DNA of 64,000 nt, taken from contig CM120644.1 of the NCBI GenBank assembly GCA_051362555.1, positions 13,042,567 to 13,106,566 on the forward strand. Reading direction: 5' to 3'. Under the pieces are notes generated by a model. The model was not told the origin of the DNA, did not search any database, and was given only the letters and a program-made list of their open reading frames with translations. Positions within the stretch are counted from its first letter, which is position 1, and each line of letters begins with the position of its first letter. This stretch comes from Lingula anatina. Its lineage: Eukaryota > Animalia > Brachiopoda. Made by a program: the position numbers and the translations under genes. Shown here piece by piece: positions 17,261 to 60,000 of this stretch.

Positions 17261-17377
17261 GTGGTTTTTCTGCACTCACCCCAAATCGCTACAATGGTGG
17301 CAGCGGTGTTGCGAGATAGGGCTCGTGTCTTTCGGCATTTGGGGGGGAGGAGTGTAGTGCCAGGGGCAGGTAGAACC

Positions 17378-19659: not shown

Positions 19660-19947
19660 TGAAGTAATAAGTAGACAAATATCACCAAAAAAGAAAGTGT
19701 CTAGAACTCTTTATTGAGAGAAATAAGGCACTACTGCACAAGCGGATCGGAAATTGAAAAGAATTTTTCATTAATGAATTTTGTGTTTGTACGACTCTAG
19801 ATTTTCTATGTATTCCTTTACAAGTATTCGGGAAAAAAATTGAAACGGTGAAACTCCTTATCAATGTAAGAAATTGTCCTCTTTACATTTGAGTGATGAT
19901 ATGGTTACTATTTTTTTCAAAGACAATGGGTGGGAGTAATTGTCCAT

Positions 19948-19978
<31 letters not shown>

Positions 19979-22900
19979 CTTCCTTTTTTGATTATGTATT
20001 TTTTTTTCGGAAACACATGAAGCTGCCTCTCATTTGGGACCGATATAAGCTGTCATCCTTTAATATGGTCGTCAAAGTAGTGATTTCAAGCAATAAATAG
20101 CTTACACTTAACTGTGCGTATTATTTTTACTTATAATAAAATATATGTTTTGTTTTTTTTAACTTTCCAGATACGAAACGCGTAAAGCAAAGTTTATTGA
20201 AATAATAGAAAATGGTTCTCTTCCGGGAGATGTCGTCTGCTTGCAAGAGGTTTGGGAAGCAGACGATCTTAGAGAAATAATCTCCAAGACACAGACAGAT
20301 TTTCCATTTTCAGTCAGCGCCCTGCATCAGACTATAGACGGCGACACTGTCTTCCCCACTGCTAATCCTTTAGTACCTGCTTGTACCCTTGCTGAGGTAA
20401 ATACACTTCATTTGTTACAGTCGAGTATCATAACTCTCAAAGTTTTAACTTCATGTATATAACCTTACCTCGATTTATTTGAGCTCTGCTTCTGTTAACA
20501 GTAGAAAAATAATATGGCTTGCATATTTTGTCATCGTTATTTCCTCCCTGGGGTGGATACGGTGATGTACCTTTTAAGAAATGGGCTTCTAGAAAAGTTG
20601 AACTTGGTTTGCTCGATAACATAAAAACTGGTAACATAACTAAATTCAAAGTCATTTTTATGAATATCATCATTATCCTACTGATTTTGAATTCTGTTGT
20701 CGTTCAAAGGGCTATCACTGCATGAAAAATCAGCTTTTATATATCCTGAAAGATGATCAAAAGGCCTCCTTTTATTCACCTTCTCACACCTTTCCTAGAC
20801 CTTTCGTTTTTTTAGGAAAAGACGATCTTTTGAATGACTTTTGTATAAGCGAAAAGGTATACAAATGGCCCACTTTTCTTTACATTTTCTCTACACAAAA
20901 GATTAACTTTCATAAACCTTTTGATGTAAAAAGACGATCTTTTGCTTGAAGAAAAGGTATTCTCAAGTTCATCATTCATCAGCTTTTTGCATGCTAAATG
21001 GCATATGAATGATCCACTTTTCTCTACCTTTTCCTGACAAAAAGTCCAACTTTCAGATGCCTTTTGTGCAACTTTCCAGATACAAAAGATAACCTTTTCA
21101 AACCTTTTTATTTAAGAAAAGACTGTGTTTTTTCTTCTTTTGTTACGTATTTTAATGTAATATTTATTGCGGCAATTTAATAATATATTGATAAACAGAA
21201 CAACACATGGTATAAATTTTAATAATTTATTCCATTATAACATTTTTGTGCAGGTTGTGCTTGTCTTTTGAAAGTTTTTGATAATCCAAGGAAATTTAAT
21301 TTTCTTGTTTTGATAATCCAAGAAAGGCTCAGGAAATGTTCTCTAAATGTACTTTCAGCCAGATCCATTAGTCCTACTATATATGCGTAACTTCCCACTC
21401 TCGTGGGAGTAGTATTCCTGGAATCGTCTGTCAAGTGAACACTTTGCCTGCACAAATCTTTGCCTTTTGCCTCCTGAAAAATAGGATGCATGTAATGATA
21501 AATGTTGTTTTGGGTAACAGTTCATTTTAATGCTAATCAAATATGATAAAAACAAGGGCAACTTTTATGTCTAATAATGATGTTAGAAGTATTTTCAAAT
21601 TATGGACTTAAAGCCATCAAACGGCTTAAAAAAGAGATTTTACCTCCTTACTTTTTTTCCATATTTTTTGTTTCAGCTCATCCAGTCCTTTTGCTTGTTT
21701 TAGAACATCCTCCTACTTTTCAGATCTGTAGTATCTTTTAATGGCACCTAGTAAAGAAATAAAAAGAGTGAACTATTTGAGTGTAATATCATGCAAAAAG
21801 TTTTCAATTAGGGAAATATGAATAATGACATAACTACAAGTAATGATGAAAATATGCATTCATGATTACTGCTAGGCAACTTGATTGAGCCTTGCACAGA
21901 ACTTAGATAGGCTCCTGTATTACATACCCCATTCTTCTCTTCCAATTTTTTTTGCCTTAGCTCATCCACTTTGTTTGCTTTTATATGCTGTTCAGACAGC
22001 CTGTCTTTTAATAGCATCTGGAAAAGAAATAGTGATTTTAAGATAGTGAATTCTTTTAGTGTAATATCATACAAAAAGTTTTCATTTATGAAAATATGAA
22101 TGCTGAAATAACTACATTGTCATACAATGATGAAGATATTCATTATTACTGCTCAGGGTCCATACAGCAACATAAAAGCAATTTAAATGACTTCTGGGGC
22201 TCTTAATCAATAACTTTTCAATAACTCAATGCGTCTTACTGTCATTTTTAAAGTTTACATAGAAAAGAGGAGCATCAATTTACACAAACTTTGTACTTAA
22301 ATGATAATGAAACATGAGAAAAAAATTGACAGATTAAAAAGGGCATTCCCCCAGCATGTCTACATTCAGGTTAAAAACAAGGTTTGAAATAATCATTCGA
22401 CAAATTCTAACTGATCAAATCCCAGAATATTTTAGGGAAAAATGATGAATACAAGCCCTTTCTAAGCTTAATAACAATTTCAAGTACTTTTTATGTCATA
22501 AACAGACTGAATACATGTACAAGGGGCAATACTAGATTCAAACACTCAAAGTGCTGTACCGGGGTATGAACCCTGCGAGTGAACCAGTGCATTGATTATA
22601 TAACACTGCCTGGAATTTAGGTCAAGGAATGTAGGTCGACTATATGGGATTAATACAGGCCAGTTATATACATGTACAGAATCTTTACTTGTACGCGGGG
22701 CCGTACTTTGATGTAAACTTTTTGCAGTGTTCTAATACATAGGTCAGAGTGTTTGATTAACAACTGTTTCACGATCGTGATAACCTTTTTTCGGCGCGGT
22801 CTGTTCTCCGGGCATAAAACCCATCTTGGGCTTCCGTGACACGGTTGTATGTTCCCTTAAATATGATTGATTCACATGTTATATTAGACCTACCTGATGC

Positions 22901-23605
22901 ATTTACTCATTCTCTTCATCCTCGTCAGTTAAATTATCGCCGCAACAATTGCCATCTTGCAAAGAAGTCGACCATAATCAATACGGTGGCTTGGAAATTA
23001 TCTTCTGTGACCGGCCTGCACAGTCTTTCAGTCCGCGCATTTTCAACCGCCTGGCCTTGCGCATGCGCAGATAGTCTGTAATGGGATATCTTTCGCGCCG
23101 ATTCTCTACCATTGACCTATAGCGCAGTATTAATGACAGAAAAGCGCGCACGGCAACCTTTTACTTCGTGTTTTACTCAAGACTAAAAACAGCAAGACAC
23201 AATAATATAGATCACTAGACACGGGGCAGCCGGTCATCGTTTTACAAGGTAGGTGATATAGTGATTTCAGTAATGTTCTCACAGTGTGTGTTAACACAAA
23301 TTAGAGCCAAAGCATGCTTCTGTGATTAAAGCGGGAATCTTTCTCGAAGCACTGCATGTTGCAAGGTAATTAAGTCGTCTCTCGAGAAAGGATCGAGTTA
23401 TACTGAGTTTCATAGGGCTTGGCTTTTGTCTGTTCTAACGTTTGACCTGTTACTCACTGTGAACTTTGGAAATATATGACATGTGCATGCACGTCCACGA
23501 TACGGGGTAACAACAAGGGGTTGTCATTTTTAAAAGTGTTAGAATATTCCCATTTGTTGGATTACAAGGGGGTGCTTTAATGTGAAAGGGGATGGATTCG
23601 TCTTA

Positions 23606-23829
23606 GACCCCATTTCCAGAGATTAGATTGATATAATTTAGATCGACCTAACTCCCTGGGGGTTCACGCGAAATAGCTGTCAGCCGAGGGGACACGAAAG
23701 TTAATTACCCCCTTACAGCTTGTAGTAGGCTGGACGGACATTTAAGCCGGATTATCTGACAGTAATCTAGGGAGACCCCCCCCCCCCACCCCGGGGATAG
23801 ATTGATCTAAAAACTCTTGGAATACAGCC
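23606..23829 (+). mobile_element. PIF/Harbinger-type MITE nested in the CACTG element; second copy at 56415-56629
   Basis: Shared core gatcgacctaactccctgggggttcacgc...ctgacagtaatctag; imperfect TIRs; TTA on both flanks. Confidence 0.75.
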
Positions 23830-24499
23830 TTATACAACCGAAAATGACACCATTTAAAACAGCACTCTCTATTGCAGTTGCTAATTATAGAAAAGAATTA
23901 AGGCTCTCAGAAAATATTGTCATGTGTTTTTGTTATGTCTCTATTATTCAATGTCTTTTCTTTTATAAAGGAATGGGGCGTCACAAGAAGAAAAAGGAGT
24001 GCCTGTCGTCACAAGAAAAGAGATGAACATCTAAAAGAAGGCTGCGTTCCCGTGCTCCTGTTATACATGAATTCCCAGTCTGCAGCTAGAATAAAAATTG
24101 TTAACCTACATGTATAACCTCATTGTGTTTACCTCAGACCCCCTGTCAAATTTATAGAATTAAACATGCTGAAATGGTAAAGGGAAGACTGGCTCGCTAT
24201 GAGCAAGAGAATAAGTAAAAAGTTATGTATGGTTGATAATTTTCCTTTGATATTAAGATTAACTACAGCAGTGTAAGCAAGATGAATTAAGGATATGCAA
24301 ACAGTAACAGTGTGTCAGTAATATAACCAGTTCCAATATAAACAAATTCAAATTGCAAAGCTGATTACTACCTATCTAACTTCGGTTAAATATTTCCATC
24401 ATGCCCAGGGCCTTACTATTAGGGATTATGTAAAAGGTAAAACTTGCTCTCTGGAGTCTAAAACACATCATAACAATTTTAAGTGGTTTTCTCATTAGA

Positions 24500-25160
24500 A
24501 ACGATCCCCTGGTCAGGCAAACTATGGAGAGGCGACTTCTGACATTTATTGTAATTTTTTTTTTTGACTTGATACAATTAGTGCAAATACTGACATAACT
24601 TAAAATAACAAAGTTAGTGATGAGAGATCCTATTGCCTTTTTTGTTGAGGAGAGGTGGTTTTCTGTTTAGAGACAATCCTCTAGCCAGGCAAATTATGGA
24701 GAGGTGACCTCAAACACTATTTTGACTTGGTACAATCAATGCTAAAATCCTGACATAACTTAAAATAACAAAGTTAGTGACGAGAGATCCTATTGCCTTT
24801 TTTGACGAGGAGAGGTGGTTTTCTGTTTAGAGACAATCCTCTAGCCAGGCAAATTATGGAGAGGTGACCTCAAACACTATTTTGACTTGGTACAATCAAT
24901 GCTAAAATCCTGACATTACTGAAAATAACAAAGTTAGGTGATGAGAGATCCTATTGCCTTTTTTGTCAAGGAGAGGTGGTTTTCTGTTTAGAGACAATCC
25001 TCTAGCCAGGCAAATTATGGAGAGGTGACCTCAAACACTATTTTGACTTGCTACAATTAGTGCTATAATCCTGACATAATAAGCTAATATCCAGAGGCAT
25101 GGAGATCATTTCCTGTGAAAGTAATTATCTAGGCTAATATGGAGATGTGACCTCTGACAT
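24500..25160. repeat. ~160-bp tandem repeat (three full units plus degenerate flanking units)
   Basis: Anchor tgacataact/tgacattact/tgacataat at 24591, 24751, 24911, 25072. Confidence 0.92.
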
Positions 25161-25891
25161 ATAACTTTTTTATTTGCTGTATTTAAATCCTGACAATATT
25201 GGAATAAAAATATAAGTTACTTTTGATTCCTAAAGTTGTTTGTCGTTTAAAGCGTCAAAATTATGTCTACCCCAAGTGAAATTCGGTGAACACTTCTTCC
25301 ACTGCACTGAGTGCTATATATTTATACATAAACTCCAGCCAATGCAAGATTGCATAATTATTTCTCCGACATGCAAATCACCACATTCAATCTATCTGTT
25401 AAATACTTTAATCAAATTGCAAAACATTTTATCATGCAAACAATTTGCAAAAGTATTCGCTTTTTTCATACTGTGCTTAATGTAAGATACGGAATTAAGT
25501 CATGTACATAGAATAACTAGTATACATACAAAAGATCACCACGCAATATTATGAAATTAGTCTTAAGCTTTCAAAAAATAAAAACATTCACAACATGTGA
25601 CCTTTCCAGTCAACAAAAGCTGGAATGTAAGGTGGCCTTTCGCACTGTAAAAGGTGATAGTTGAACTTTTGAAAACTGAAAGTTAATTAAAATGTGAATG
25701 ACGGTCTTTCCGAGAGGTAAAAGTTGATAAAAAGATGACCTTTTACAAATAAAAGGTGAAAGATGACCTTTTCGTCAGGAAAGGATGATGAAAGATGAGG
25801 GATCATCTTTCGATAACATTTTGTAGATAACTGAAAGGCGATAAAAGGTGTTTTTTCATGCAGTGTATGGTGCTGATACCTATTAAGCGTT

Positions 25892-25931
<40 letters not shown>

Positions 25932-26989
25932 CATAAATTCAATACGGAATAAATCGTTCCATGGTGAATACCGTGCGCTTGCAATACGTTAACGTTTTCT
26001 GTCAAAAGATTTTTATTTGTTGTCATTTCCTTGTGTGGGAAAGCATAACATTTGGTTCCACCTTTAATTACAGGTGAATGCAGTATCCCAGTGTTTTTTT
26101 AACAATTGTGTCGCGAACAATGCGCCAGACAGGTTTTTGTGTTTCGTTGGGAACTGCACAGCAGAGTACCAGGCGCTCTCCCAGGTCTGTTTAGCTTGCC
26201 TTTTGGCACGGCAAACTCAAAATGTGAAAGAATTGCTGAATGCTTTCAGTCGAACTGAGCTTTGTGCTACAACCCCTTACGAGATGACCTATGGCCTAGT
26301 GATACTCAGCAAACGACCGATAGATGACACTAGTTTCGTAGACTACCACGATGGATATTCAGTGAGTGTGCCGCGCGGGTATCTTCGTGCCAAGGTACGT
26401 ATATTCAATCCTCAGAAATCATTTATGCATGGAAGTGTAAATGATTTAAATAAAATCAAGCCTGGCTGTAGCCACGCTCGACTGTCACCTTGTTTGATTA
26501 ATCAGCCTACTGAAAGGACCTACAAAACCTCATGAAATGAAAAATCCTAGCAAAATCAATTAGGCATTTTTATCTTAAACTGACATGATATAAACAAAAT
26601 TTATTTTGGTTAATTTGTTAAAAATTAAAATGGTACACCGCTGAGGTTTCAATATCAGAGAATTATTCTTGTCAAATTGGTATTCAAACTAATTATATGC
26701 ATACCGTCTAGAGTGTTCTGAAAGGTATCAATCAATATGAATATAAGTATTAAAATTTCAGTGTTCAATTCCAGTTGCATCGTTCACAATTTCCGCTCCT
26801 AAACCATATTCTTACCGAATTTTATGAAAAGTTTCTAAAGCCAAATTTTGTCTGGCACTAAATATATTCCTCTAGAAAAAAAAAGGTGTTACCCCTGCCG
26901 CACTGATGTACATTGCTACTGGGGAAAGATACCCATAGGTATAATTTTACTAGTGCATAACAACTAGGAAACCGATTATCGTGCAGCCC

Positions 26990-27440
26990 ACATAATTAGT
27001 GGTATGGGGTGTATCGGCTTCTTAGGTGTACTTGTGCTTGTATTGGTCAACGGGAAGCGTAACGCAGAACATTACATCCAAGTTCTGGAAAGAAACTTAA
27101 TAAGGAATTCTGTCAAGAATATCTTTTCTTTCAGCATGACTATGCTACCCCACTTACAGTCAATGTAACAGTATAGGCTGGTTATATGCAAATTCAGATT
27201 CAGCCCCCCCCCCTCCCCCCTCCCATGGCCAGCTCAATCCCTAGATCAGAACCTCAAAAGAAATGTGTGGGATATCCTCAGAAATAGATAGCTGAAGGAT
27301 AACCTTGCAAACAAAACTGATCACATTCTTTGAGGAACGCCAACACTCTACAAACGTTAAAAACTTTTTAGCAAAAAGCACAGTTCGCGTCAGGTGCATT
27401 TTCCAATCCAGAGGATACTGTACAATATACTATATCGTGG
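26990..27440 (+). mobile_element. Degenerate Tc1 transposase fragment
   Basis: Frameshifted remnants VWG-CIGFLGV, QHDYATP (QDNAP-like) and PWPAQSLDQNLKRNVW (WPAQSPDLNPIENVW-like). Confidence 0.7.
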
Positions 27441-28700
27441 AATTTATTTACTATCATAAGCTTATTAATTTCTTGCACAATCAGTAAAAAAAATTGTAAA
27501 ACAATCCCTTCAGAATCTGATAAAAAACAATGGATTATGACATTACCTTCTGTATCACTTTACGCACTACATTATGGGTGACACTTTTTTTTTTTTTTTT
27601 TTTTTTTTTGCTAGGGGAGTACGTCTATAGGTCAATTGTCAATACACTTAAGTATTTAAACAAACATTTTTTTCCTACAGGTTGGTGGTGTCCACGTGTT
27701 CTGTACTCACACAACCCCTGTTCTGACGGATATTTACTTAGATGGTAAGTAGGATAACAAGTGTTTAAGAGGGGCATTTACTTAAGGGAGTTGGACCCAC
27801 GTAATGGGCTTAGCGTCTGCTTCCCCCCTTCTTTGCTCAACATTTTGTTATAAAAGGGCATTCTTTCACAAAATTACGAAAAAAATACTTGTCATATGGC
27901 TTGGCTGCTATGTATTCGTTTTGATGTCAATTTTAAAGAAAGGGAAATGAAAGGTCTGTGCAACAGCGAGTCCGGTATTCACTCATTTCAAACAAGTCAG
28001 TGTCGATGTGACTCAAGTGGATCAAAATATAGGACGGGGTAGGGGGGGGGTGGCTCTACAAATTATTGCATCAACGTGACCTTGAGTAGTGCCTCGAATT
28101 GCCTTATGTGTGAGTAGTCCGCTTAACACTGATAACCGGTATAAACCTAATGTATTTCCTTGTCTACTAAGTAATTTAATCTCTGTTCATATTGTAACTG
28201 TTATACATCATCTTTTGATAAATGGTGTCCATGGTTTATCTTTATATAATTTGTCTATAAATGAGCAATAGTGTGTTCTTTAAATCAATTTCCAGGCCGT
28301 TTCGGTAGTTACGAGGAACAAAGTTTATATGAACTTGGAACGCTCCTGAACGCTGCAAATCCCGTTCTCGAGAAATCACTTTTGCTGGGCGATTTCAACA
28401 CTTCACCGAGTATCCCGGATGCAAACATTACGTCACAGCTTCCCGTGGCCTATCAGCTCCTGACCCAGAACTACTTTTCCCCTTATCTGGAGGTAGTGAC
28501 GTCATGCACATACTGCAATGATAACTGGCTGACTAACAATCGCTCTGACCGTATAATAGACCACGTGCTTCCACCCAAATCATGGAGGGACCAAATAATG
28601 GAGAAGGTAAAGGGAGATATTAGTCGTACACGCGTGATTTAAGGTTACGGGTGTGTGTGGGAGTGTGTGTGGGGGGGGGGGGGGGGGGGAAGGGGGGGCA

Positions 28701-29013
28701 CCCGCAAGAAAACGCAGTAGTTACTCCAGCGCAGTAGACTACTGCAATCATACTGCAAACCGCAGCAGACTACTGCAATCATACTGCAAACATGCTTCAA
28801 ATCTGCTTCGATTTGGGAGCTAATTAGCATATTTGAAACATGCTTCTATCATGCTGCTAATCTACTGCATTAATGCTCCTCTCTGTACAAACCTATGTAC
28901 TTTTTGGAGTAGAATTGCAGTAGGCTGTGCTGCATTTCTACTGCAAATATGCTCCACACCACTACTGCGTTAATGCTTTTTTGCTACTTCGATACTTCGC
29001 ATTTTCGTGCGGG
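28701..29013. mobile_element. MITE with CCCGCA ends, 2-bp TSD and actgc subterminal repeats
   Basis: cccgcaagaaaacgc ... gcattttcgtgcggg with CA on both flanks; absent from gene B. Confidence 0.75.
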
Positions 29014-31945: not shown

Positions 31946-34770
31946 ATGAGGAATGCACCTTGCATTATAGCAATATTATGGGTGGTTCTTACATTTGGGA
32001 GGTAAGAAATAAAACTACTTTGAAGACATATTAGAGATGTTAAAACGTAGCGTATGAAGAAAATTTTAGCAGCCACTCACTTTCAGATATTGCATGCTCC
32101 GGTGTAAGACCAATTACTGTTCTCCATACTTTGGCCGCATTAGCTGTATTCATAACAGTGGACTAACCATTTCGCAGATCGAATATGGCCAATCCAATTG
32201 AGTGCTTGTTGCGTTATCCTCCTGCCTGGGGAAAGTATTCAGTGTCTACAAGGGGATAAGATGGCACGCTTTCTTGTTGGTTGCCATATTTGATCCGCTG
32301 ACTAGTTAGTCCTTTGTTCTGAATACGTCCATTCAGAACAGATGATCCGCTGGCTAACTGGTGCGCGGATCAAATATGGCCGACCCCACTTGAAAACGAT
32401 GCAACTAACCCCTAATAGTCTCCCCGCCTACCACACGCGTCAGGCCTGTAGGGGTCTATTGATTCAACGGATTTTATCTCGTTTTCGAGGTTTAAATTTT
32501 CGTGAAATAGCATAGGGACTGCGTTACAATAAATTGTGTAACAGGCTACTAGAGCGCCCTGTGGTCAGAGAGTAGGTCTAAAGATACCAGTTCGCTGTCC
32601 TTTGTAAAGCCATGTAGATTTCTGAAGATTCCGCATGTAATTATCTCCTCCAATTGTCCCGTTCACGTATTTACGTGTCGATATTAATTGGAAAGAATTC
32701 ATCCCTTCAGCCGATTGACACAACCGAAGATGTTACCTTGTTGATTAACCAATCGCATTCCTCTCTAAGAATCCACTACCGATCTTCAATACCATTAAAT
32801 ATGTGAAATCTTCTTTAAAGATGACCATCGTTAGGTTTTACCTCGAAAGACATACTGATTGGTATTTCTTAGGACAAACGGCATTTTCTCCAACCAACCA
32901 ACGTTTGCTCCTCCTATTTTGTCACTCACCATATCTGTAACTCTGTAACAATTTGAGGAGTTTTAAAAGTCCTTAACATTCGTTTGAGGACAGGTTTTCA
33001 AATCCTGCTATCCTTTTTAGCATTGACTCTGTCAAGATTGTTGACAGATGGCGAAGAATCAAGAGGTGATTAATCACCTTAATTTTGGCAACATTAATTC
33101 ACAACATTTAGCATTCAATAACGTACTTTGAGTCCTTAAATGAGTTCACCAAGAAGTGATAGATGAATCTTTGCGTGAAAAAAATGAAAAAGGTATTTAA
33201 AACCGCATGATTCTGTCTGTTTAGAAGCAAGTCGTTTGATTTATGTATCATCTTTTCACTTGTATTTTAGTCCACACCGCCAAGCGCATGCCAATCACGC
33301 TATTTATCCCAAAACTTACTCCGACAGTGTTGATGGCCTGATAATAAAACAATTCGCAGGTTTGAACGGCCGGGTTGGTCAAGAGGTTGGGAATGGCAGG
33401 ACTCTCAAAGATACGGAGAACTTCCAACTTATTAGAGAACTAGAAAGTGACCCAAGCTACAGCGAAATGAAGCCCAGTTTGATGTATGATCAGTCAAGTG
33501 GAAAAGGTCATCTAAGCAAAGGCAGAAAAAGTGCAGCTAACGCTATGGAGAAGAGAATACAAAAACGTCATATAAAGAAATCAAAGAAAACAAAGAAATC
33601 AAAGAAACGTGGAAGCAAGGATCGCATTGTGAACGCAATGCTGGGAACAGTGACATTCAACGTAGGTCTCCATCCTACTGTTGTGCCTGAGTAAGTGCCT
33701 TAAACAACTAGAAAAGCATTCCGAGTGCGCAGACCTCCGCCAAGGCAGCAATTTTTGATTATTATTGATTATTGATTGATTATTGATCCGGATCACCACC
33801 ACCACCATCTGCTCCTTGGCCCTTGGCCCAGTTCCTGAAAATTTCATCAAAATCGGTCCATCGCTTTTTGAGTTATGTTGATGACAGACAAACAAACAAA
33901 CAAGGGTGAAAATATAACCTCCTTGGCGGAGGTAAAAAGGGAGTTTTTGTAACCGAAGTGATCATTATTGAACGGCATTAGGTATTCTGATGCCACAAAA
34001 GAATTACACAATGAAAACATATTTTTTTAGTTTAGAAATTTCGCTCGACTTTTTTTTTATTTTCTGTGTATCCTTTACACAATATTCGATAATAATACAC
34101 TAATATTAAAAGTCAAACGGCTAATCAGTCACGAAACCCCTTTGATATCTATGTAGAAAATAACCCTCTTTGCCTTCGAATAATCGCATTGTCATTGCCT
34201 TATTTATTTATTTCAAATAAATATATTTTTTTATTATTTATCAATCTATTTATTTTCCTTTTCAATTATGGATGATGGATTTTTAGAAACCTACATAAAT
34301 CTGTAAGCATTTGGCACCGATACTCGTGTAGGAGCAGATGTTCCTTATCTTCTGCAAACTTAACCGAGAATTTCTGTATATATCTTTTTTTTTTTTTTTG
34401 GATTAAATACATTTATTGTACATTGCTTTCCAGATACGAAACGCGAAGAGCAAAGTTTATTGAAATAATAGAAAATGGTTCTCTTCCGGGAGATGTCGTC
34501 TGCTTGCAAGAGGTTTGGGAAGCAGATGATCTTAGAGAAATTATCTCCAAGACGCGGACAGATTTTCCATTTTCCGTCAGCGCCCTGCATCAGACTATAG
34601 ATGGCGACACTGTCTTCCCTACTGCTAATCCTTCAATACCTGCTTGTACCCTTGCTGAGGTGAATATGATTAATCTGTTACAGCCTTACATCATACTTAC
34701 ATACCTACAAATCATACTTACAAAGTTAAATATGAAAAATAATTTACCTTTTAACTGAAGTGCCATCTCA

Positions 34771-34808
<38 letters not shown>

Positions 34809-37800
34809 AACACACACACACAAACGAAGTCCCACGCTGTGACTTCATACTGATTCAATTTAGTTCAATGCCTGCAGATGAGCCTCTATACTGTACTAGA
34901 AGGTTTGTCGTCGACGTGATTTCCAATTCGGAGGCATTATATTTTTGTCGGCAAGACAGTAACCATTCATAGGACCTGGTGTACGAATAGCAACACCGTA
35001 TCATTTGCATGTCATTGTAGTGGGGAAATCCATAAATAATGCGAAACAATTGATATAGTGCTGTAGTAAATTGTTTACATGCCCCGGGTATTTACCGTGC
35101 TCCAAATCTACCTGTATAAGCTACGGTACTATGGCTGGCATTTCCTTTGGCTTTGATTCCGACAGGATGTGAACGTATGTGTTCCCTGACTTAGGTCGAC
35201 GTAGCCTTTAATAGAGGAACCCCTAAATAATATGTTGATGGTAATTTATCAGGTAACATAACTGTATTCAAAGTAATTTTTCTGAGTACCGTCATCCTAC
35301 GGATATCTTTTGTCATCTACATTTAGTCCCACATGAAATTGCAGGTGAATGCGGTATCCCAGTGTTTTTTTAACAACTGCCTGGCGAACAATGCGACAGA
35401 CTTGTTCCTGTGTTTCGTTGGGAACTGCGTACCAGAGTACCAGGCGCTCTCCCAAGTCTGTTTAGCTTGTCTTCTGGCACGGCAGAGCCGCAATCCCAAA
35501 GAATTGCTTGCTTCTTTCAATAGAACTGAGTTTTGTGCTACAACCCCGTACGAAGTAACCTACGGCTTGGTGATACTTAGCAAACGACCGATAGAGGACG
35601 CCTCGTTCGTGGACTACCACGAGGGATATTCAGTGAGTGTGCCACGCGGGTATCTGCGTGCCAAGGTTAGTATATCTGGACCCCGTATTCGTTTATGCGT
35701 AAAAAATTATATACAGACTTGACATTTAATATGGAATATTTTTTCCAAATCATAATTCATCAGTTTTTTTCCTATTTTGCAGACTGATAAATGAAAATAA
35801 GGATCAAAATCGTGTTTTTATAACTTATGATAAACTGTTCCATGTCATTGTGACATCAGTTCTTTAATTGACTTCGCCAATGAAGCAAACAAAACTACAT
35901 TGCCAATCTTAAGTCATACGACAACCATTGAAAGCGATATTTTGGATCTCCATATTTTCCAAATTATCGTCTTTAAAAGAGTTACACGACCCACAAAGAA
36001 CCTTCATGTCAGCGTCTAGTCACAGTAACGGTCGCCGCTATGCCTGACCTTATCCTTCTGCTACCAGAGCTTTCAAGAGGCAAGGCATTTCTTGCGATAG
36101 TTTTTTAAGAATTTAATCTGGAATAAAAGTCCAGGCAACGGTTAAAGCTTGTCCAATTTGGTTCAATTTTGTTGTAGGACATGCTGGCCGTTGATTTGGC
36201 GACTATTGACCTAACCACATATTGTCAAAGTGAATCAAATATGGCGATTTTGATGACCAAGGTAGCTGCTCATTCCCTTGGTTCTGTAAGTTATCTGCTA
36301 ATAAAAGTGCTCTGTGTGAACCAGCAATCTGATCGTGCAACCTAAAACTGTTCCTAAGGTGTCCCCTATCAAATGATAGTCAAGTGGTTCCCAGATTATT
36401 CCTTTATTTGATCTGGTTCAGGTTTTAGTCAATGACTTCCATTGGTGTTTTGGCACCAGTGTGGTATCAACTCCAAATACTGACGCTGTTAATGGCTCTA
36501 GTCACTTCAGAAGCGGCACACACCTTGTCGTAGACCTCTTGAAGATGTCTGTAAGCTCTTTTTTTGACCAATTTAGCGGTACAGGCGAAATCTGACCTCA
36601 ATAAAGAAAACAACGCGGTTTCAATGTTCTACCCAGAAACGGTCATGGTCCCCAATTCATTAGAGAAACAGACTACGCTGTTCTGCTGTTTACAGTGGCC
36701 TCCTCAGAGGTGGGCTGGTATCTTAATCTGCTTAAACCAGTTTGGTGTTCGCTAAGAGACTTGAAAAACGCGCTTTAGTGACAATTTGCCCCTCATTTAA
36801 AACGGACTGGGTGGTTTTGGTTTAATTGCAGCAGCATATCCTGAAGGAAATTGAGTCCTGTATTCTGGTGGTAAGATATCGATACATTGGACGTGGTGTC
36901 TGTGTGGGTACATGAGCCTGGGCATAAGTCTGTGAAATTGTGCGGACCGTTTCTTTTGGGGCAATAGTCTGTCTGGCAATGTCTTTCTTTTTCGCGCCAT
37001 TCTGGCACATTTTAACAATTTTGAAAAACAATACTTAACTCATTTTACGCACTGCAAAACCGACCGCTTGCATGCAAAATTTCAATTTCTTCTATGCAAT
37101 GGTTGCCGACATATGGATACTTTTTTGACAGAACCATCCCTCGCCAAAGCCAAGCTTTGACCAGCCCAAAGGAGCACTACCCAGTTAAATCAATGCATAT
37201 TTAACAATGCAGCAGTGCATCAGACTTGGTAAGCAGTTAATTGGTAGAGACACACCTTTCTTCATACTTCCCCAGTCAGATATCTTATATGAGATCTGAG
37301 TGTTTTCAATAAAGAACGCATTTTTACCTAGGTATACCTTTAAAACTGAAATATTCCATATTAAATGTCAAGTCTGTATGTATGAAAAAATTCAGGTCTA
37401 TATGTAAAAAAAGCACGCTCGACTGTGACTTTGTTTTATCAACCCAATAAATGGACCTACAAAACCACAAAAATGACACTATACTAGTCCACCAGAACAC
37501 AATAATGCCCGATCTCTTAACCGATCGAATAGTGTAACGATGTTTTTGTCATTACATATTTAATTATTCAAAATTTAAATAATACACACAGTAGGTGTCA
37601 GTGTGAGCTAAAGGTTCTCGTCAAATTTGAAATAGATATCCAAACGTTTTATTTGCACACCGTATAGTGTTGTCAAGTTACCAATCAATAAGCATTAAAT
37701 TTTTCAGTTTCAGTACTATCGATCACCGCTACCGCTCACGAACCATAATCATACCAAATTTTGTGACAATTTTCTAAAAGAGAACTTTACTTAATTCATG

Positions 37801-39684
37801 TAGGTCAATGGTCACAATTAAATACACTTTTATTTTTAACTAAACATTTGTTCTGCAGGTCAGTGATATCCATGTGTTCTGTACTCACACCACCCCTGTT
37901 TTGACTGATGTTTACATAGATGGTGAGTATAGGATCATCATAGGTTAAAGGGATAACAACTGTTCATTTTGGCTAAAAAATGAATTTTCTTGGGGTAAAC
38001 AACAATTTTCCCATTCTTACCAATGGTTAATGAATCCAGTTCTACATTCAAATTTAGTCCATGGTTATTTTCTAGAAAGTTTGCTTTTTGTAATAATCTC
38101 GTAAGCTATAGCCATCTATGGAGGTCACATGATCGGATGACAATCACAAATTTTAGAATAATTGCTTTTTTGCCATTCTTGGTGGTGAAATAAAATATAT
38201 TATATTTCCTTGAGTTGTCTACAATGTTTTTATAGTGAAATAAAGATTCCATACGAAGAGTTGTTATCCCTTTAAGTCGTGCATTTAGGAAAGGGAGCTG
38301 GACGAGGTTGGGGGGTGCATGGCAACTGCCCCCCCCCCCTCCTCTCCGCTGCCACCTTTGCTCAACGTGTTGTTATAAGAAGACCATTCTTGCACAGACT
38401 TCATCATAAAAAAGGAAACTCTTGATGTGGCTAGGAACTGTATACCCACTAAAAATAGACTATTTAATATTACTATCCCCATTTATACTTTTTGGAATGT
38501 CAATTTGAAAGAAAAAGTAAATGCAGGGATCGTGTAACAGCTAAAGAGACAATTGAATTCTTTAGTCTTTTCACACAAGTCAGCGACAGCACATGACGTG
38601 CGCTAAGTAAGTGGGTCAAAATCTAGGACGGGGTAAGGTCTAGAAATCAGTGGAAACTGGACCTGTATCGAATTACCTTGTTTGTATGCTCAGTATGCCT
38701 TGTTTACTAGTACATCTGAACAGACTATGTTTCCTTCACTTCCTAAGTATTTAACTCTCTTTTCATATTGTACTTGGCATCCTCCATCTGGGGTTTAAAT
38801 ATTCATAAGTTGTACTAGTTAGTCAATGAATGAGCAATAATACATTATTTTAAATCCATTTTCCAGGCCGTTTCAGCAGTTACGCTGAGCAGAGTTTATA
38901 CGAACTCGGAACGCTCCTGAACGCCGCAAATCCTGACCTCGAGAGATCTCTTCTTCTTGGAGACTTTAATACTTCTCCGAGTATCCCGGATGCAAACATT
39001 ACGTCACAGCTACCCCTGTCCTATGATCTCTTGGTCCAGAATTACTTTTCCCCTTATTTGGAAACCGTTACGTTATGCACGTTCTGCTATGACAACTGGC
39101 TGACGTATAATTTGTCTAATGTTATTATAGATCACGTGCTTGTACCCAAATCCTGGAGGGACCTAATAATGGCGAAGGTAAATAGAGAGGTTAGCATCTT
39201 ACACGTGTGATTTAAAAGGAGACAGCAGCAAGCACTGCGAACATTGGTCAGAATTAAACACCAGTTATATATCTTTATTTTTGTATGATTTTATTTATTT
39301 ATTTATTTATTTATTTATTTCGCACCCGACTTTGAACAATTCTTCCATTTTGGTTTCTATTTGGTACTTGATACAATAATTTGCAATTGTTAATGAGGAT
39401 TGATTTATGTTCGGGCATGAACAAAATTGTGAGTTTGTGCAAAGTTAAAATTCGATCTGAAACCTGAAAAAAATGGCTCGTCACATATTTAATGCTCATT
39501 TGCAGTCCCCTGAAGCAGAGACACCAAAGTAGATACGAATCGTAAGAAAGTACTTTGTATTGCTAAAATAATCACACTACTTAACCCATTCCAGGCCACG
39601 CCACTGAGAATATTTGATGGAGATGACACTGTGTCGGACCATTACGGCGTAGCTTTGTTCAGCCAAGAAAATCAAGAGGAATAA
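31946..39684 (+). CDS. Secreted Cys-rich EEP-superfamily hydrolase, gene B (~495 aa)
   Basis: Exons 31946-32001, 33271-33690, 34434-34659, 35345-35665, 37859-37922, 38867-39177, 39595-39684; no stops. Signal peptide MRNAPCIIAILWVVLTFG, Lys-rich tract, and motifs TFNV, CLQEVW, THT, GDFN, IDHV, SDHYGV. Confidence 0.92.
33703..33937 (-). mobile_element. Short HINE/Helitron-like element
   Basis: Minus strand starts ttttacctccgccaaggagg, has a (GTTT/GTCT)n microsatellite, an inverted ccttggcggaggt copy, and ends ...ttttctagttgtt. Confidence 0.7.
35714..37376 (-). mobile_element. 1.66-kb Tc1/mariner element with degenerate transposase
   Basis: Perfect ~28-bp TIR cagacttgacatttaatatggaatattt; TA TSD; minus-strand remnants KKDIARQ...KETVRTI and LPWSSKSPYLIHFDNMW; absent from gene A. 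Confidence 0.9.
37949..38271. mobile_element. Kolobok-like MITE (AG...CT ends, TTAA TSD)
   Basis: ttaa-agggataacaact ... agttgttatccct-ttaa; absent from gene A; related fragment at ~57415-57500. Confidence 0.8.
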
Positions 39685-50446: not shown

Positions 50447-51562
50447 CAGAAGAATATAAAAAACGGGACTTAGAAAAATAATTTTTAAAAAGTCCTTTGT
50501 TTTAGTAAGTATTATATATATTTGTTTTTATTTAATCCCTCACACGAGTCACATGAGGTAAGCATTTAGTTTAACGAAACGGCAATTTACCAACATCCGA
50601 ACGCGAATTGCTGCCATGTCAATAATGATAAGAAAAACAAAAAGAATAAAAAGTTTTACGTTGGAGTATTTTGCGTACGTTGGGAAAATTTACCAATCTG
50701 GTTAAAATAGATTTTCCCAAACATAAACCTCCAACTAGGACCGATTTTACATACCAGTTGATTTCCTTTTTCCTAATTGATCACTTTGCAGGCTCGACTG
50801 TATTAGTTCACTGTCTCTATCAGGCGTGGCAGTTGGGACTGTAGCACATCTGTGTCCAGTTTGCAACTGAAGTCCAGCGATAGGGTGAAATTTTTTTATT
50901 GATTAGACTGGGTAATTTATGGCTAAGGCTGAATAATATATGGCCCAAAAATCCAATCCAATTAGGCATGTTAATATGTTAGCTCTGCGGAACTGTAGAA
51001 ACTGCCGCAGGACATCAAATACTGCAATGAGGCCGCTTAAAACATTTTTTAAAGTCGCTATGCAGTGCAATGCAGAGCATCGTCTTTGTGTTGTATTCCA
51101 TTACAAAGGTTATCTGGGACAGTAAATATGTCTCTAACTTCGGTTAGCTTGAATGCTGTATGAAACTCGTTGGTGGAAGCAACTGGCCGGGGACGGGTAA
51201 AATAGGTATACTGATTTAAAACGCTGAAATATATAAACTCAGCATATAAACACTCTGGACAATAGAAGTGTCACCCAATGAATCAGAGTAATCAGATTTA
51301 TTATCCTGAAAAGGCGGAATATAAGCAATGTCAGAATATCGATATAGTTGAATTGTTCAGTCAGAACCGTTTCTTTTGTGAAATTTTATGTTAATAAAAT
51401 GATACCAGGAGCATATCATTCCACAGTCATTTATCTCCCCCAAAGTATTGGTTCAGTAGGGGTGACACTTCTATTGTCCAGTGTGTATATTAAATATCAT
51501 GTGTGCGAGGACTTTAACTATGAATGATGTAGCATTTCACATTAACACGTGTCTCAGCACGA

Positions 51563-51820: not shown

Positions 51821-52634
51821 ATGTCAGAAGTGGAACTTTCTGTGCGCACTCTTTCATTCGAAATGTCAAGGTAAACAGTGTGCCAAACACTTATTAAGGC
51901 TATCTATTTCACTTCATGAATCAAAACATATTTCCTCGTTGACTAAGTTAATGGGATGTCTTGGTGCGCAGAAGAGCGTGGACCTGGTGTACTGGTTTGT
52001 CTAGCCAGATTAATGATTTAATTCAGTTCGTTTGATAAGACAGTATACAGGAATATATGTAACTGCATATTTATATAATTAAGTATTATATAATTGATCA
52101 ACCAATTAAAAGCTAATGCTCTAGATAGATGACAAAAAAAGAATCGCTGCCTCATGTCTGAGAGGAAGGTGAAATGCGTCTGTATGTCTAGCAGCACCAG
52201 ACATACGTCTACTTAAAAGCAATCACGAGATTATGGTACTGTGCGGTACATTGAATTTTGGCAAGTCAAGGTACAAAAATGTCTGGTTTTTATGTATGTT
52301 ACACGGCTCTTAACTCTAATCTATCCGCGCGATCTTAACCTTTATGTCATCACATTTGTGAGTACACTGTTCGGAGCCTGTTTTTTTTTTTCGGTATTAG
52401 TGAATGTGAAGTAATGTACCAGCGTCTGTAAACACACTGTAGTTTTACCAAGGAACACGATTAAGTCGGGGCATTGTCAGATCAGGTCTTAATCATTCCA
52501 GTGTTGGGAAGGATATGGAAAACCAAGGAAGTGAGAAGACTGAAAGTGAAGAGAAACAGGTAAGAAAAGCAAGTAGAGACGTATTAGCACCCTAGTTGTA
52601 GATATCTCCATTTGCATTCAGGCATGCTATATCT

Positions 52635-52672
<38 letters not shown>

Positions 52673-53136
52673 GACAGGATTTTTGTTGATAGAAAATTCT
52701 ATTTTTCTTATATAATTTACGTATCAACATTTTGCAAACTGAGACCAGTTTTCGTTTGAAGTTGAGTCTGAGGCTTGCGTAACGTAGAACTTAGCAAGAA
52801 ACAAATGGGTAAATGAGTATCGGGCTCCGCAACCTAGGTACATTATTTTTTTAATATAATTAGCTGGTTATCATCCTTTGCAGCTGACTCATGGAGCGGC
52901 TGCTGTTCCGCTTCATCTGCCGCATTGTGCAAATGATGAGATCAAGATTGATGTTGTGCCCTTGCCACACTGTGGAGTGAGAGTTATCGTTCAAGACAAG
53001 CGGAACCGGCCGCAGTCGAACCAGGTCTGTCTGTCTGTATGTCTGTCTGCCTGTCCCTTGTCACGTCTTTCTGGTTTTTACGTACAGGTAAATGTACATG
53101 TAACAGGCCGTGTGTACATGGAAGTCCATTTAGCCG

Positions 53137-53173
<37 letters not shown>

Positions 53174-55660
53174 GTGTGTGTGTGCGTGCGTGTGTGTGTG
53201 TGTTTGCATGTATTCCCATGAATGTAACCGCATGTACATGTATGTGTGTGCCAAGGCCGAAACGTAGATAAATAAATCGTCCAAAGTCGAAATTACTTTT
53301 CTGAAGTCTGCAAAACAAATTATCAACAACAGCTTAAGTCGATACACTACACTACATTAAACTACACTACACCACACTATAATGTATGAAATGGCTCATT
53401 TCAGCCTAGAGACGGCGATATCGTTTCGTTGTGGTCAGTGATGTCCAATGCAGGAGATGGGTTCCTACAAGTGACCAACGTGAAAGTGGACCCTTTTCTT
53501 GACAAAGACGAATACGTGGTCAACACAGCTGGAGAGCTTGACACGGACGCAAGTAAGAATCCAAAGCATGTAGTTAGTATTTCATCATATTTTAAGTTCG
53601 AGCAACAGTGTTTTATTTGAAAACATTCCAACTAGATAAACACACAAACATGGAGCAAAGATCACTGCCAAAGATACACACAGATAAATTGTGGTAGCTG
53701 AGATCGAGCGGATCCATTGCACAGCGACCAAATAACACATTTCATTATATTTTGATGAAGGCCACTGGCCCCTTTGTCGCAATACTAAAAAATCCTTGTA
53801 AGATTCCAGGATCTACTTTTAAGTCGGTCCATTTCTGACCTGTCCTGAAATTTTCACGAAAGATCCATACGTAACTTTTTTTTGCATTATGTTGGTGACG
53901 AACAGCCAGACATACGGAGACATAAACATAAGAGGTTATAATATAAATGAATTTATTGTTTTTAATTGCATACAAGAGGGTGTGCGTTACGCACGTCGAA
54001 TGCACGATCGTCCACATAGCTGGTTCCTCACTGAAAAGAAAGCATTAAAATTGAATCTACTAGGGCATCATAATTCTCAAATACGAGTATGTGCTTTGAC
54101 CTTCAAATAATGTTGACTTTCCTTAATGAAGATCGTTTGGAACGACGTCTAGTTTATTTTCGACAATCATCAGTAGAAAAGCCACCCAAGACGTAATACT
54201 TATCGTTATTATTAAAATTATTATTGTAATTATTTTTTCGTATTTGATATTTAGCAAAATTCATGTGGCAGACAAGGTTTTCACCTGGCAATGCTCACCC
54301 TTGGATCAATATTACCGACCTTGACCCAGTTATCCTGAAAATCCGTGGAACCCAGTTTAAACAAGATGGCGACAATTCTTGGTACATTATTACTGTAGAC
54401 GGAGATGACGTCGTTGCGAAACCAGAGGTGAGAACCTTTCTGCAATGAAGATGACTTGGCTCTTTAGTTTGCCTTTAAATTCAATAATACAGGCACCGTA
54501 CTATATGGTATCTGCATATATGTACAAAAAACAGAGGATCTCAATCAACTCACGCAAATTTGCAATGGAAAACACTCTTTACTTTAAGAACTTTAAAACG
54601 CGTACTAGTGCCATATTTCTATCAGTCATTGCTATTTACATGATCTTACTCCTGAACTGCATTTTCATACATGTATTGTATTGCATACATGTGCATTTCT
54701 CCATTCCATTCAAATCAAGAATGTTTTCCCTGGAGAGGATGCAACACAGACCAATCAGTTCCAAATATTCAACCCGTCCAGGTGGCCGGTATATAGCATG
54801 CCAGAGGTTGGGCGGAATATCAGGTAAGCTTGATTGACGCCGTGTGCGACTCCAAAGCACCAGCATATCTACCGTATAATACATATGCTTTCATACATCA
54901 ATAAAGGATATATCTATGAAATTGAATACACGTACATGTATCTTTTGATGAGGGGAAAATGATAGAAATAATGTTCATATGAAATTAAAATTTAGATTAT
55001 ATCTGCATTTAAAAGGTAGGCCAAGGGTAAGTAATGAATAATCACAGTACATAAACAAACCTAAACCACCCATCCAAGAAAAAAAAATCATCTAACGTAC
55101 TAGTACCAGTACGTTAATGGGCCTATTAATCAGATATAATACACTGCGTAAAATCTATTTTATCATTTCCCATTTCCCGATATCATTTCCCATCATTTTT
55201 TTTTTTTTTTTTTTGAAACATTGAAATACAAGAAGTTAAAGTCGACATACATGAACCTAATTGGCCATGGGCCAATTAGGTCACCATCGAAGATTCAATT
55301 TGTGAAACAGCTGCAGGCTACAGAGTATAGTTTTACATAGCTTTTTTGTAGCTGTATAGCTATACTAGCTTAGCTGTACATGTACATTGTACATGTAGCT
55401 GTAGGCCTACTTAACCATTGTAATTATGCTCATTTTAGTTTTGCATATTCAGCCTGAGTTTCAGTATTCCCCAATAACATGCACAATGTCTACATTCTAG
55501 ATTCAACATTAATAATGCTGGAAGTAACATGTTCCTTGGCTCAAGTGCAAAAGGCAAAGCTCGGAAAGTCTCGCAGGAAGGAGATCCAGAGGGCGCTAAC
55601 TACTACTGGCCGAACCCCGCCATTTTGTTTTTTGTCTACGATAGAGGGCAGCCTATATAG
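51821..55660 (+). CDS. Putative leaderless beta-trefoil (IL-1/FGF-like) protein, paralog 2 (~277 aa; alternative start at 52515)
   Basis: Exons 51821-51870, 52502-52559, 52884-53024, 53405-53552, 54255-54427, 54720-54823, 55501-55660 (TAG); phases 2/0/0/1/0/2; no stops; acidic N-terminus without a signal peptide; exon-for-exon paralog of 5838-8341. Confidence 0.85.
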
Positions 55661-56414
55661 GACAAACGTAATTTGTCGCTAGAACAATCAAACAAATCCT
55701 TAGTAGCTGTACTGGTGTGTCCATTATGAGTGCCAGACTAAATATAGAAACACACTTAGAATAATTCATAAACTGTAGATTAAAGAATACGGTTTGTCAA
55801 TCACTGAAAACACTGACGAGGAAAGCTCTTTTACCAATAAAACTTCTGAGAGGAATGTCTTTTGTCTACCGTGTACTGGTTTCTATACATGCGCAAAACA
55901 AATGTCTTCAAGTTCGTAAACCAGACAAAGTGTTCCGTCACTTTCACAGCAAATTAACACGTGATCTGATACAAAACCTATTGATTGCAATTTGGGATAT
56001 TTTCTACTACAGGTAGATGTGTTAGTATGCAATCAGTTTGTTAGGCTTAACAAAAGTGAGGTATTAATGGGCTGTTTTAAAATAGTGCTGTGGGGAGATA
56101 AACAACATAACGTTACCATAACGCTTTTTTGTTACATAAACGTTATGGTAACGTTATAAAACGTTCTGTGCCTGCTGGGATGGACGGGAAAGATGGAAGG
56201 TCGAGTTAAGGCCCACCCACTTTGCATGTACATTGCCGCTGTAATGTACATGGTCCTTAATCAAATTCCACGTGAAGAAAGGTCTTTGTCACTGTGTGCC
56301 CACCAGAGCACTTTGCCTAAAATTTGCATACATCCAATGCACATTTACTGTTAAGCACGTATGATCATTGGCCAAGGCATTGCGAGTCAAAAGTAAGCAT
56401 ATTTTAGCAACTTA

Positions 56415-56629: not shown

Positions 56630-57087
56630 TTAGAAATGTGTGTGTAAAGCTGAAACGTCAATAACCGGGTAAGTCTGTTAAATAGGGCAGTGGGGAAGTG
56701 ATCACCCGTTCTAAAAAAGGCTTAAGATTGTACACGAAAAAAAAAGGTAATTACCACATTGGTAAGCTTTCGCATGGACAGCATCTTAAAGAATGCCACG
56801 TGTCGCTGCAAACCTTTTTCAAACACCTATTGTTAAATCAGAATATTCCGCAGTTTTGCAACGCCAGACTGAATGAAGCACCGCTGTTAAACATACATGT
56901 ATATTTACGCAAACGCATCACTAAGCTACATGTTCTATAACAGCTTGCGTCACGAATAAGGAGAGAGAACATTAGCTGAATTTGAAGTAATTTTCATTTG
57001 GCAGTAACGAGTTGTGGTGAATACATCCTTTAAGAATCGACAGTAGATATTTGAATGTCGTCATAATTAAAGTCGTTAATCGCGGCA

Positions 57088-60000
57088 ATGCTTTTTAAAT
57101 CCAACATCCGTTCAGCCTATTTTGGCGCAGCCTTCTGTTTAGCGATGATGACTTGGGGTGTCAAAGGTGTGAAAGGGTACCCCACGGGCGCCCCACAGGA
57201 CGCGTGTGGAGCTATGTTGCCTTACCATGGACCTCAAGGTGACGACCAATTATATCCCAGCCAGACAGGCCCAGCTCCTTACACCATACAAGTCGCATCC
57301 CATCATGGGACCTACTTGCCGGGCAAGGCGATGAACGGTACGTTTATTGCAGTCTGTTTTACTTACTAAGGATTGAGAAGGCTTTCTGCATCCTCAGTCT
57401 TAATACTCCGACCTTACTGGTGGTAAAATAGAAATTATTATATTTCCTTGTGTAGTTTACAATGTATTTAATGTGAAATATGGATCTCATACGAAGAGTT
57501 GTACGAAGGGGATGGAGTCGGTGAAATAACTGTGTTTAAAGTATTTTCTTTAGTGGTCATTTCTCAGCCAACCATGACAGTATATTGGCTAATGACAGAT
57601 TTCGTTTTGATAGTTTATGGCGTTTCTACATTTGATGGCCTTATATCAACATCTTTTGTCATTTTAAAAAATTTATGCGACCTACATCTGTAACTACATG
57701 TAGCTACTTGCTAGGAAATAGGGATATTACAATGCTCCATTTTATTTTTATTAGATATGTCTCTATAAGAAAAGATCAGCAAACCGTGATACCGTCTCAA
57801 ACAGAAACTTACACCCTGCTAAAACGTTTGTACCTTTGCACCGGTAATATGAATTGTGTTATGTCCAATTCATGTATGTAACTTGCGCTTCTTTCAGTGA
57901 CTCTCATTGGCAATGTTGCTTTCAAAGGCTTTTTGTTGCAAGCGAGAGTAACGAAAGGCAACACCCAAGTGGGCACGTGGTCTATTCCCAGTGCTATATC
58001 TGCGCATGCGCGTCACGTGGCATGCGGCTGCCATGACGGAGCCGTGACGCACAGGAACAATACAGATAAGAGAGCCCTTACGTTTATGTGGAATGCGCCC
58101 CCTGTCGGTACCGGGGACGTGAAATTTGTGTAAGTGTTTCAGGCACCCGCGCCCTTCAAACGACAACAGACAGATTTGCTAAATACTTGAGGGACAATCT
58201 GCATTTGTAATCGAACTGGTTTTTATACGTACATGTAGGCTACTATCGGTAATACGTTTGTTCGTAGTTCATACGTTCACGTCAATTAAATCAATTCGAT
58301 TTTTATGTACAGACACAGATGTGTCTGTACATATAGCCATCACCTGCGTCTGTCGTCGCCGTCGCCGTCGTCGCCGTGCACTTTTACCGATAACACGATA
58401 AGTGGAAAACCGTTTTTTCTTTTGGTTTGAAACTTACAGAATTGATGAATATTCATAATACGCAGGTCAAGTTCGAAAATCAGCATGATCGGGCCATTTT
58501 TAGGGTAGTTATGCTGTTTTTTCACTTTTTTCAGCATATATGCAGCACCGATAACACGATAAGTGGAAAACCATTTTACCTTTTGGCTTGAAACTTACAA
58601 AACTGATAAATATTCATAATACGCAGGTCAAGTTCGAAAATCAGCATGATCGGGTCATTTTTAGGGAATTTATGCTGTTTTTTCACTTTTTTCAGTATAT
58701 ATGCCATATTACTTTTTGGCTTGAAACTTATGAAACTGATGAATATTCATAATACGCAGGTCAAGTTCGAAAATCAGCATGATGGGGCCATTTGTGGGGA
58801 AGTTATGCTGTTTTTTCACTTTTTTCAGCATTTATGCAGCAACGATAACATGATAAGTGGAAAACCATTTTACCTTTTGGCTTGAAACTTACAGAACTGA
58901 TGAATATTAAAAATACGCAGGTCAAGTTCGAAAATTGGCTTGATTGGACTATTTTTACAAATTTAAAGTTATGCTGTTTTTTCCCATTATTCAGCATATA
59001 TGCAACATTGATAACACATTTTAAGGAAAACCAATCAGCCTTTTGTCTTGAAACTCACAGGAGTGATCAGTCTTACTAGTATACAGATCAAGTTTGAAAA
59101 TAAGCTTGATCAGTTAAGTTTTGATGAAGTTATTAGCCCTTTTGTATACAAGTGGTTTTTCTTCAGATTTAATTCTTAGGCATGTTGACAGTCTCATTAT
59201 GGAACTAATTAGATATGAAAAAGTGTTGTTTTGACATTTTCTGCTTCTTAACAATAATGAAGTAATACAGGTTTTTTGTGAAAATTTTTATCTTTCATAG
59301 TTGCAATTTTCAATGTGGGACTTAGAGCTCCCTTGGGCATGGAAGCCTAGTGGTAATCAAATTTTTTTCTTAATGTCCATGTTTTTAATAGTAGATATTT
59401 TAAAATTGGTGGTATTTAATTAGTTAATCATTATGTAATGTTGCATCAAAATTGACAAAAAACCTACTTTGTGCTCTGCCACCATTTTCAAAGTATGACT
59501 CTGACTCTAAAAGAGTAAAGTTTTACTTTCTATTTTTTTAACTATTCTTACAAGAATGATTCTTAGGATTGACATACAGCTCATATTAGAAAACCAGCTC
59601 TATTGGATTATCATTTTTATTAAATTTATGCATTTTTTGTGAAATTTTCATTTTTCTCATTCTGGCACTTTCTAATTGAAAACTTGAACTCTGATGGGCC
59701 TGGAGCCTTATGCTTTTACTTTCATCAGTATTACCTGTTGTGCATAATTAAAATTTGATGTTGACTGTGCAGTTAAACATAATGTATTATTGCATCAGAA
59801 TTGGCAGTCTCCTGTTTTTGTGCATTATTGTTTTCTGTTTTTCTTAAGGTGTGACTTATGGGCCTGAAGACCTTTGATAGACAAATTTGTGTGGTCGGTC
59901 TGTAAATTCCCCTTGGGTATTCACTAGGCTAATTTCAGTGATATAAACTCATTTGCCTAATTAAGTGGCCATAAAATGAAATTTCATTAAGCACACTTGT

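Follow-up and report, generated by a model that had tools for sequence, protein, structure and literature searches.

Gene structure and transcription of the locus

The stretch analysed here comprises 64,000 nucleotides of the brachiopod Lingula anatina (assembly GCA_051362555.1, contig CM120644.1, positions 13,042,567 to 13,106,566 of the forward strand; hereafter the window), in which a gene at positions 51821–55660 had been described by a first-pass annotation as a leaderless beta-trefoil gene with IL-1/FGF-like introns and as a candidate IL-1-like cytokine. The gene was identified, by retrieval with exon 5, which also returned the paralog LOC106164288, as LOC106164303, whose database model (P0001, 273 amino acids (aa)) is identical to the first-pass version from exon 2 onward. 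LOC106164303 is a real, spliced and weakly transcribed gene, and its product, a predicted trefoil, is tentatively read below as a lectin-like or inhibitor-like binding protein.

The seven exons (Table 1) are joined by introns that all have GT..AG ends, and together they encode 277 aa in a single open frame, the intron phases being 2, 0, 0, 1, 0, 2. Transcription was assessed with eight coded RNA runs carrying the same species label, in two sets of four. The phase-1 intron reported ahead of KFMWQ was confirmed at the joint 53552>54255 (GT..AG) by seven reads from three of the four runs of the first set, and none of the joints listed came from the second set; the phase-0 intron reported after VVAKPE likewise holds, having GT..AG ends, an open frame and the same phase in the paralog LOC106164288. 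Read cover of exons 2–7 is thin, most reads placed on exons 4 and 7 bear the letters of the paralog, and loose read ends display the paralog's own splice into its first domain exon (32–49 reads, four runs), so that the paralog appears to be the more abundant transcript in the sampled runs.

The open frame of the proposed seven-exon model stands, whereas its exon 1 received no reads, a weak negative at this depth, and the paralogs start at the equivalent of 52515. Both candidate first exons had zero reads in all eight runs, where exon 2 itself has a depth below 1, and the first-pass exon 1 has no similarity to the upstream region of the paralog. Since the Met-Gly start of the paralogs aligns with ATG 52515 within exon 2, this codon is the likeliest start, which would give a product of 256 aa. 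LOC106164303 has Glu where the paralogs have Gly2, and this copy would thus have lost a myristoylation-type glycine; the full MGxxxS pattern, a myristoylation-type consensus, occurs only in the third copy of the family.

Table 1. Coordinates of LOC106164303, its relatives and other features of the window.
Feature	Position	Strand	Remarks
Exon 1, first-pass version	51821–51870	+	ATG; phase-2 donor, in frame with exon 2; unverified, may be 5' untranslated region or unused
Exon 1, alternative (P0001, 273 aa)	52233–52270	+	From tblastn of P0001 and donor context; likewise unverified
Exon 2	52502–52559	+	Phase 0; contains ATG 52515 matching the paralogs' start; RNA depth below 1 in 3 of 8 runs
Exon 3	52884–53024	+	Phase 0; linker and conserved predicted beta-hairpin ahead of the domain
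Exon 4	53405–53552	+	Predicted trefoil strands 1–3 (numbered by eye); phase-1 intron at end
Exon 5	54255–54427	+	Predicted strands 4–7; phase-0 intron at end
Exon 6	54720–54823	+	Strand 8 and the beginning of strand 9 (predicted); phase-2 intron at end; low read depth
Exon 7, coding part	55501–55660	+	Predicted strands 9–12 and stop; weak RicinB_lectin_2 match below cut-off
AATAAA polyadenylation signal	55836–55841	+	
Full paralog LOC106164288 (P0002, 267 aa)	5838–10575	-	Six coding exons; Met-Gly start; phases 0, 0, 1, 0, 2 as in LOC106164303
Third copy LOC106164289 (P0005), first coding exon	2192–2239	-	MGxxxS start; rest beyond the window
Duplicated blocks	1300–5200 and 9100–11400		82–88% identical; carry the 5' ends of family copies two and three
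Dispersed repeat copies	3137–3465 and 17159–17487		97% identical
ATG27 / cation-dependent mannose-6-phosphate-receptor-like gene	about 13500–15300	-	PF09451
Tandem endonuclease/exonuclease/phosphatase-like genes	19000–29000 and 33200–39200	+	PF03372
Short repeat element	51300–51490		Just upstream of LOC106164303
Reeler-domain gene	57070–58130+	+	PF02014

Family members and selection

LOC106164288 lies inverted in the same window and is 73% identical to LOC106164303, rising to 83% in the domain, where the ratio of nonsynonymous to synonymous substitution rates (dN/dS) is 0.10, with a synonymous divergence of 1.1, over 189 codons. The hairpin ahead of the domain (residues about 52–70 of P0001) is kept in all family members, with a dN/dS of 0.12 over 32 codons, whereas the first 29 codons have a value of 0.50 between the two genes. 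Judged from these ratios, the family is under purifying selection, and its product is constrained apart from a looser N-terminal end. The annotated proteins of LOC106164289 and LOC106164293 are truncated (127 and 135 aa, by annotation only). A more distant relative, LOC106167642 (P0006, 283 aa; 35% identical), lies on another contig; it has a hydrophobic, signal-peptide-like start (11-residue hydropathy 2.65), a basic, Pro-rich N-terminal region (isoelectric point (pI) 9.5) and shorter loops. A phmmer search against 1.84 billion representatives gave three matches, all from Lingula, and neither it nor further sequence searches found a homologue outside the genus. This is a small family, predicted to have a known fold, that is restricted, as far as found, to Lingula and is undescribed in the literature searched, and its tandem and truncated copies match the birth-and-death pattern of an effector family.

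The absence of a signal peptide in LOC106164303 was borne out by hydropathy, the best 11-residue value within the first 40 aa of the 277-aa frame being 0.53. The acidic N-terminus that had been described is limited to residues 1–36 (9 D/E, 4 K/R); the whole pre-domain region, 61–82 aa long, is about neutral (10 D/E, 9 K/R), and it is the domain itself that is acidic.

Predicted fold of the encoded protein

The usable fold evidence is the ESM Atlas model of P0001, with a predicted template modelling score (pTM) of 0.61 and a mean predicted local distance difference test (pLDDT) of 0.60, for which ten structure rows from the 30 nearest models were listed, all of them too weak to assign a family name. 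Residues about 72–273 of the model align to trefoils; the best single-domain template modelling (TM) scores by row were 0.74 and 0.64, for actinobacterial hypothetical proteins, followed by MIR (0.63), CFAP161 (0.58) and RicinB_lectin_2 (0.57), together with one AbfB-bearing cluster. MIR occurs in four of the ten rows listed and CFAP161 in one, and IL-1 or FGF occurs in none of them, at the model pLDDT of 0.60. Atlas feature searches with P0001 and the domain of P0002 converged on ricin-B-like, CCL2-like lectin, clitocypin/I66 inhibitor, fascin and FRG1 clusters (0.89–0.91), and FGF was present in the feature list only as a minor family within a fascin-like cluster at rank 17. Two AlphaFold2 models showed no trefoil (pLDDT 34 and 28), and structure searches with the first returned only noise; these models, built from only 2–3 sequences, are unusable because homologues were too few, although the strands of the pre-domain hairpin are present in both.

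Sequence searches of Pfam, NCBIfam and PDB gave nothing above cut-off. The Pfam scan covered five proteins and ten exons, and IL1, IL1_propep, FGF, PDZ, MIR, Fascin and CFAP161 had no match up to an expect value (E) of 10, the HMMER filters dropping most matches above 0.1; the sole trefoil hint was RicinB_lectin_2 (PF14200; E 0.4, 11.9 bits against a cut-off of 25.6). The motifs quoted for three similar beta-rich units are all present in the sequence, but the similarity of the units was not upheld, as none of six pairwise comparisons beat shuffles (p 0.13–0.73), and the case for a three-fold repeat comes from the predicted fold and a pattern drawn by eye. The domain is about 195 aa long, with long loops, no Cys, five His and a pI of 4.6 (4.3–5.0 in all three full-length members). 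It is very probably a single loop-rich beta-trefoil, preceded by a predicted conserved hairpin, and the leaderless trefoil of the first-pass annotation is accordingly supported by the Atlas model and features. A trefoil fold alone is no proof of kinship (PMC5861070).

A lectin-like reading and the evidence against it

LOC106164303 is read, at a probability of roughly 0.45, as a non-catalytic, lectin-like (or inhibitor-like) binding protein rather than an interleukin-1, on three grounds: the predicted structures and features nearest to it, the dynamics of the family and the precedent of mytilectins. The latter are trefoil lectins of animals that have no leader, although their brachiopod members acquired signal peptides (PMC10744619). 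With ricin-B-type and fungal trefoils (PF14200, CCL2 PF21595, clitocypin PF10467, I66 PF16850) and mytilectins the protein shares the top Atlas features, a single leaderless or secreted trefoil and the weak PF14200 hint, whereas it lies below all cut-offs and has more introns and longer loops. In such a protein the trefoil surface, with conserved aromatics such as those of the WPNP loop, would bind a protein partner or glycans, with a probable defensive role at the surface of cells or of the body. Targeting would vary by member: P0006, with its signal-peptide-like leader, would be secreted, the Met-Gly neighbours may be myristoylated and tethered to membranes, and LOC106164303, with Glu for Gly2, would be either a soluble cytosolic protein or one exported leaderless.

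Several observations weigh against a lectin-like protein. The Atlas model is mediocre by its pTM and none of its structure rows reaches the family-naming bar; the feature scores are at lead level, with 94–138 of 256 features shared, fewer than the 170 usual for genuine members of a family; and TM-scores may be biased towards trefoils with long loops, whatever their ancestry. The ricin-type QxW motif is absent from P0001 and P0002 (QxF occurs once) and occurs twice in P0006, and no mytilectin HPxGG/HxDxH motif was found. The intron positions, moreover, are better explained by IL-1/FGF ancestry. With strands assigned by eye from the sequence pattern, the codon of Thr129 is interrupted by the phase-1 intron, two codons ahead of core Phe131 in predicted strand 4, which we take to be the offset of the phase-1 intron of human IL-1beta (residue 40/Phe42 in mature-chain numbering) and of FGF1. 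The phase-0 intron lies after Glu186, five residues past the first Val of predicted strand 7, two codons later than in IL-1beta and FGF1, where it presumably lies three residues past that Val. A simple model with three introns, 195 codons and assumed phase shares puts the chance of both introns falling within two codons at 0.0006, an optimistic value as the tolerance was set post hoc, the register was drawn by eye, published support for the reference extends to phases and not to positions, and the comparison was confined to IL-1beta and FGF1; the 1-then-0 phase order alone arises in 0.31 of random draws. The claim of IL-1/FGF-like introns stands for the phases, which match the last two (1, 0) of the coding phases II, 0, I, I, 0 given for IL-1beta in PMC4880838, and more tentatively for the positions, of which one would coincide exactly and the other is two codons off. 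Amphioxus FGFs retain two core introns (bioRxiv 2024.08.30.610304).

Comparison with IL-1anc, FGF and other trefoils

The lectin-like binder is slightly favoured over a divergent protein of the IL-1/FGF class, which would be a very divergent, PDZ-less offshoot of that superfamily, synthesised as a precursor with no leader, exported by an unconventional route or after cleavage, and received by an Ig-domain receptor (IL-1R-like or FGFR). This offshoot is a plausible but less probable explanation, and an IL-1-like immune function specifically is unlikely. The known point of reference is the IL-1anc family, which spans Eumetazoa (Fontenla-Iglesias et al. 2026, PMC13736523) and of which two Lingula genes with PDZ, LanaIL-1.1 (LOC106166605) and LanaIL-1.2 (LOC106154450), are given in its Table S2; neither LOC106164303 nor its paralog appears in that table. 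Its marks are the PDZ domain, which some members have lost, (F/L)ES in strand 9 and two central introns of conserved phase; the trefoils span 3–5 exons, one member has a signal peptide and, per the authors, divergent members may have been missed by their PDZ-anchored search (PMC13736523).

LOC106164303 resembles IL-1anc in being leaderless, in a C-terminal predicted trefoil on four exons with central phase-1 and phase-0 introns, and in its species, and the additional phase-2 intron does not tell against IL-1 kinship, given the 3–5 exon range; the fast-evolving extreme N-terminus and the LEK of P0006 at the strand-9 motif position also speak for the offshoot. It differs in locus, in the absence of a Pfam PDZ match and of (F/L)ES, and in nearest predicted structures that are not IL-1. 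Neither (F/L)ES nor the IL-1 signature (pattern from PMC4880838) occurs in any of the three full-length members, LOC106164303 having FNI at the strand-9 position. The displaced phase-0 intron, the rank-17 placing of FGF, the lack of IL-1 or FGF matches in Pfam and PDB, and a stretch of 640 nt past the stop with zero ATTTA elements, as well as no nearby kB-type site, tell against it as well. The IL-1anc linkage genes of some clades (IL-1R-like, GCC2, ESD, EIF2A, TRAF3), a linkage not reported for brachiopods in PMC13736523, were not found among the identified neighbours, for which 15 open reading frame pieces of the window were scanned and five matched Pfam. Identity with the published Lingula IL-1anc genes was ruled out by locus, and LOC106164303 should not be filed as IL-1anc; an IL-1-like cytokine, as first proposed, is the less likely reading, and the structural comparison of IL-1/FGF with ricin-B and other trefoils leans to the other trefoils without being decisive on a model of this quality.

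With FGF (PF00167) the protein shares two core introns alike in phase and, approximately, in place and some strand motifs that look FGF-like by eye, but it has no Pfam match, a long-looped acidic domain and an extra phase-2 intron. FGFs have a basic heparin-binding surface, unlike this acidic domain, and LOC106164303 should not be filed as FGF either. Since other brachiopods and a phoronid were reported to have ordinary FGF8/17/18 and FGF9/16/20 ligands (PMC8180254), LOC106164303, if a ligand of the IL-1/FGF class, would be an addition to the known ligands and not a stand-in.

An intracellular scaffold of MIR/CFAP161 or hisactophilin/fascin type, binding a protein partner or actin at membranes with myristate-anchored paralogs, is improbable: the MIR and CFAP161 rows (MIR PF02815 and CFAP161 PF24569; TM 0.51–0.62 by query, long hairpin loops), the fascin/FRG1 feature clusters and the Met-Gly starts, which recall the myristoylated trefoil hisactophilin, are set against the lack of any Pfam match, a lineage-restricted family where proteins of these types are usually conserved across animals, a member with a signal-peptide-like leader and too few His for hisactophilin. 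Another all-beta fold is very improbable: the non-significant repeats and the trefoil-free AlphaFold2 models, the latter built from 2–3 input sequences, face Atlas structure and feature searches that converge on trefoils for two members.

Neighbouring genes and repeats

The remaining features of the window are listed in Table 1. The two tandem endonuclease/exonuclease/phosphatase-like genes are similar multi-exon genes with a Cys-rich exon, indicating a local duplication (Exo_endo_phos matches at E 7e-4, 0.047 and 7e-6), and the ATG27-like gene matched at E 1.7e-6. A secreted-looking reeler-domain gene (E 7e-15) lies 1.4 kb downstream of LOC106164303; reeler proteins often serve defence. The short repeat upstream of LOC106164303 has heavy RNA cover from many loci and loose ends on both sides, and the dispersed repeat, with its internal tandem duplication, is possibly, by impression, a tRNA-derived SINE (short interspersed nuclear element).

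Significance for the family

If LOC106164303 is a lectin-like protein, it would be a further example of the lineage-restricted trefoil effectors of marine animals, of modest importance. A bolder and doubtful possibility is a third lineage, in a brachiopod, of IL-1/FGF-class cytokine trefoils without PDZ or FES, recognisable only by two ancestral introns and invisible to sequence- or PDZ-anchored searches, whose paralogs would alternate between secretion by a signal peptide, N-myristoylation and release with no leader. Invertebrate IL-1 is already known through IL-1anc, published in 2026 with two Lingula genes, so the gain from a true cytokine reading would be a new PDZ-less branch; intron position would then find cytokine-class trefoils overlooked by PDZ/FES screens, and the Lingula family would provide a natural paralog series spanning three routes of export.
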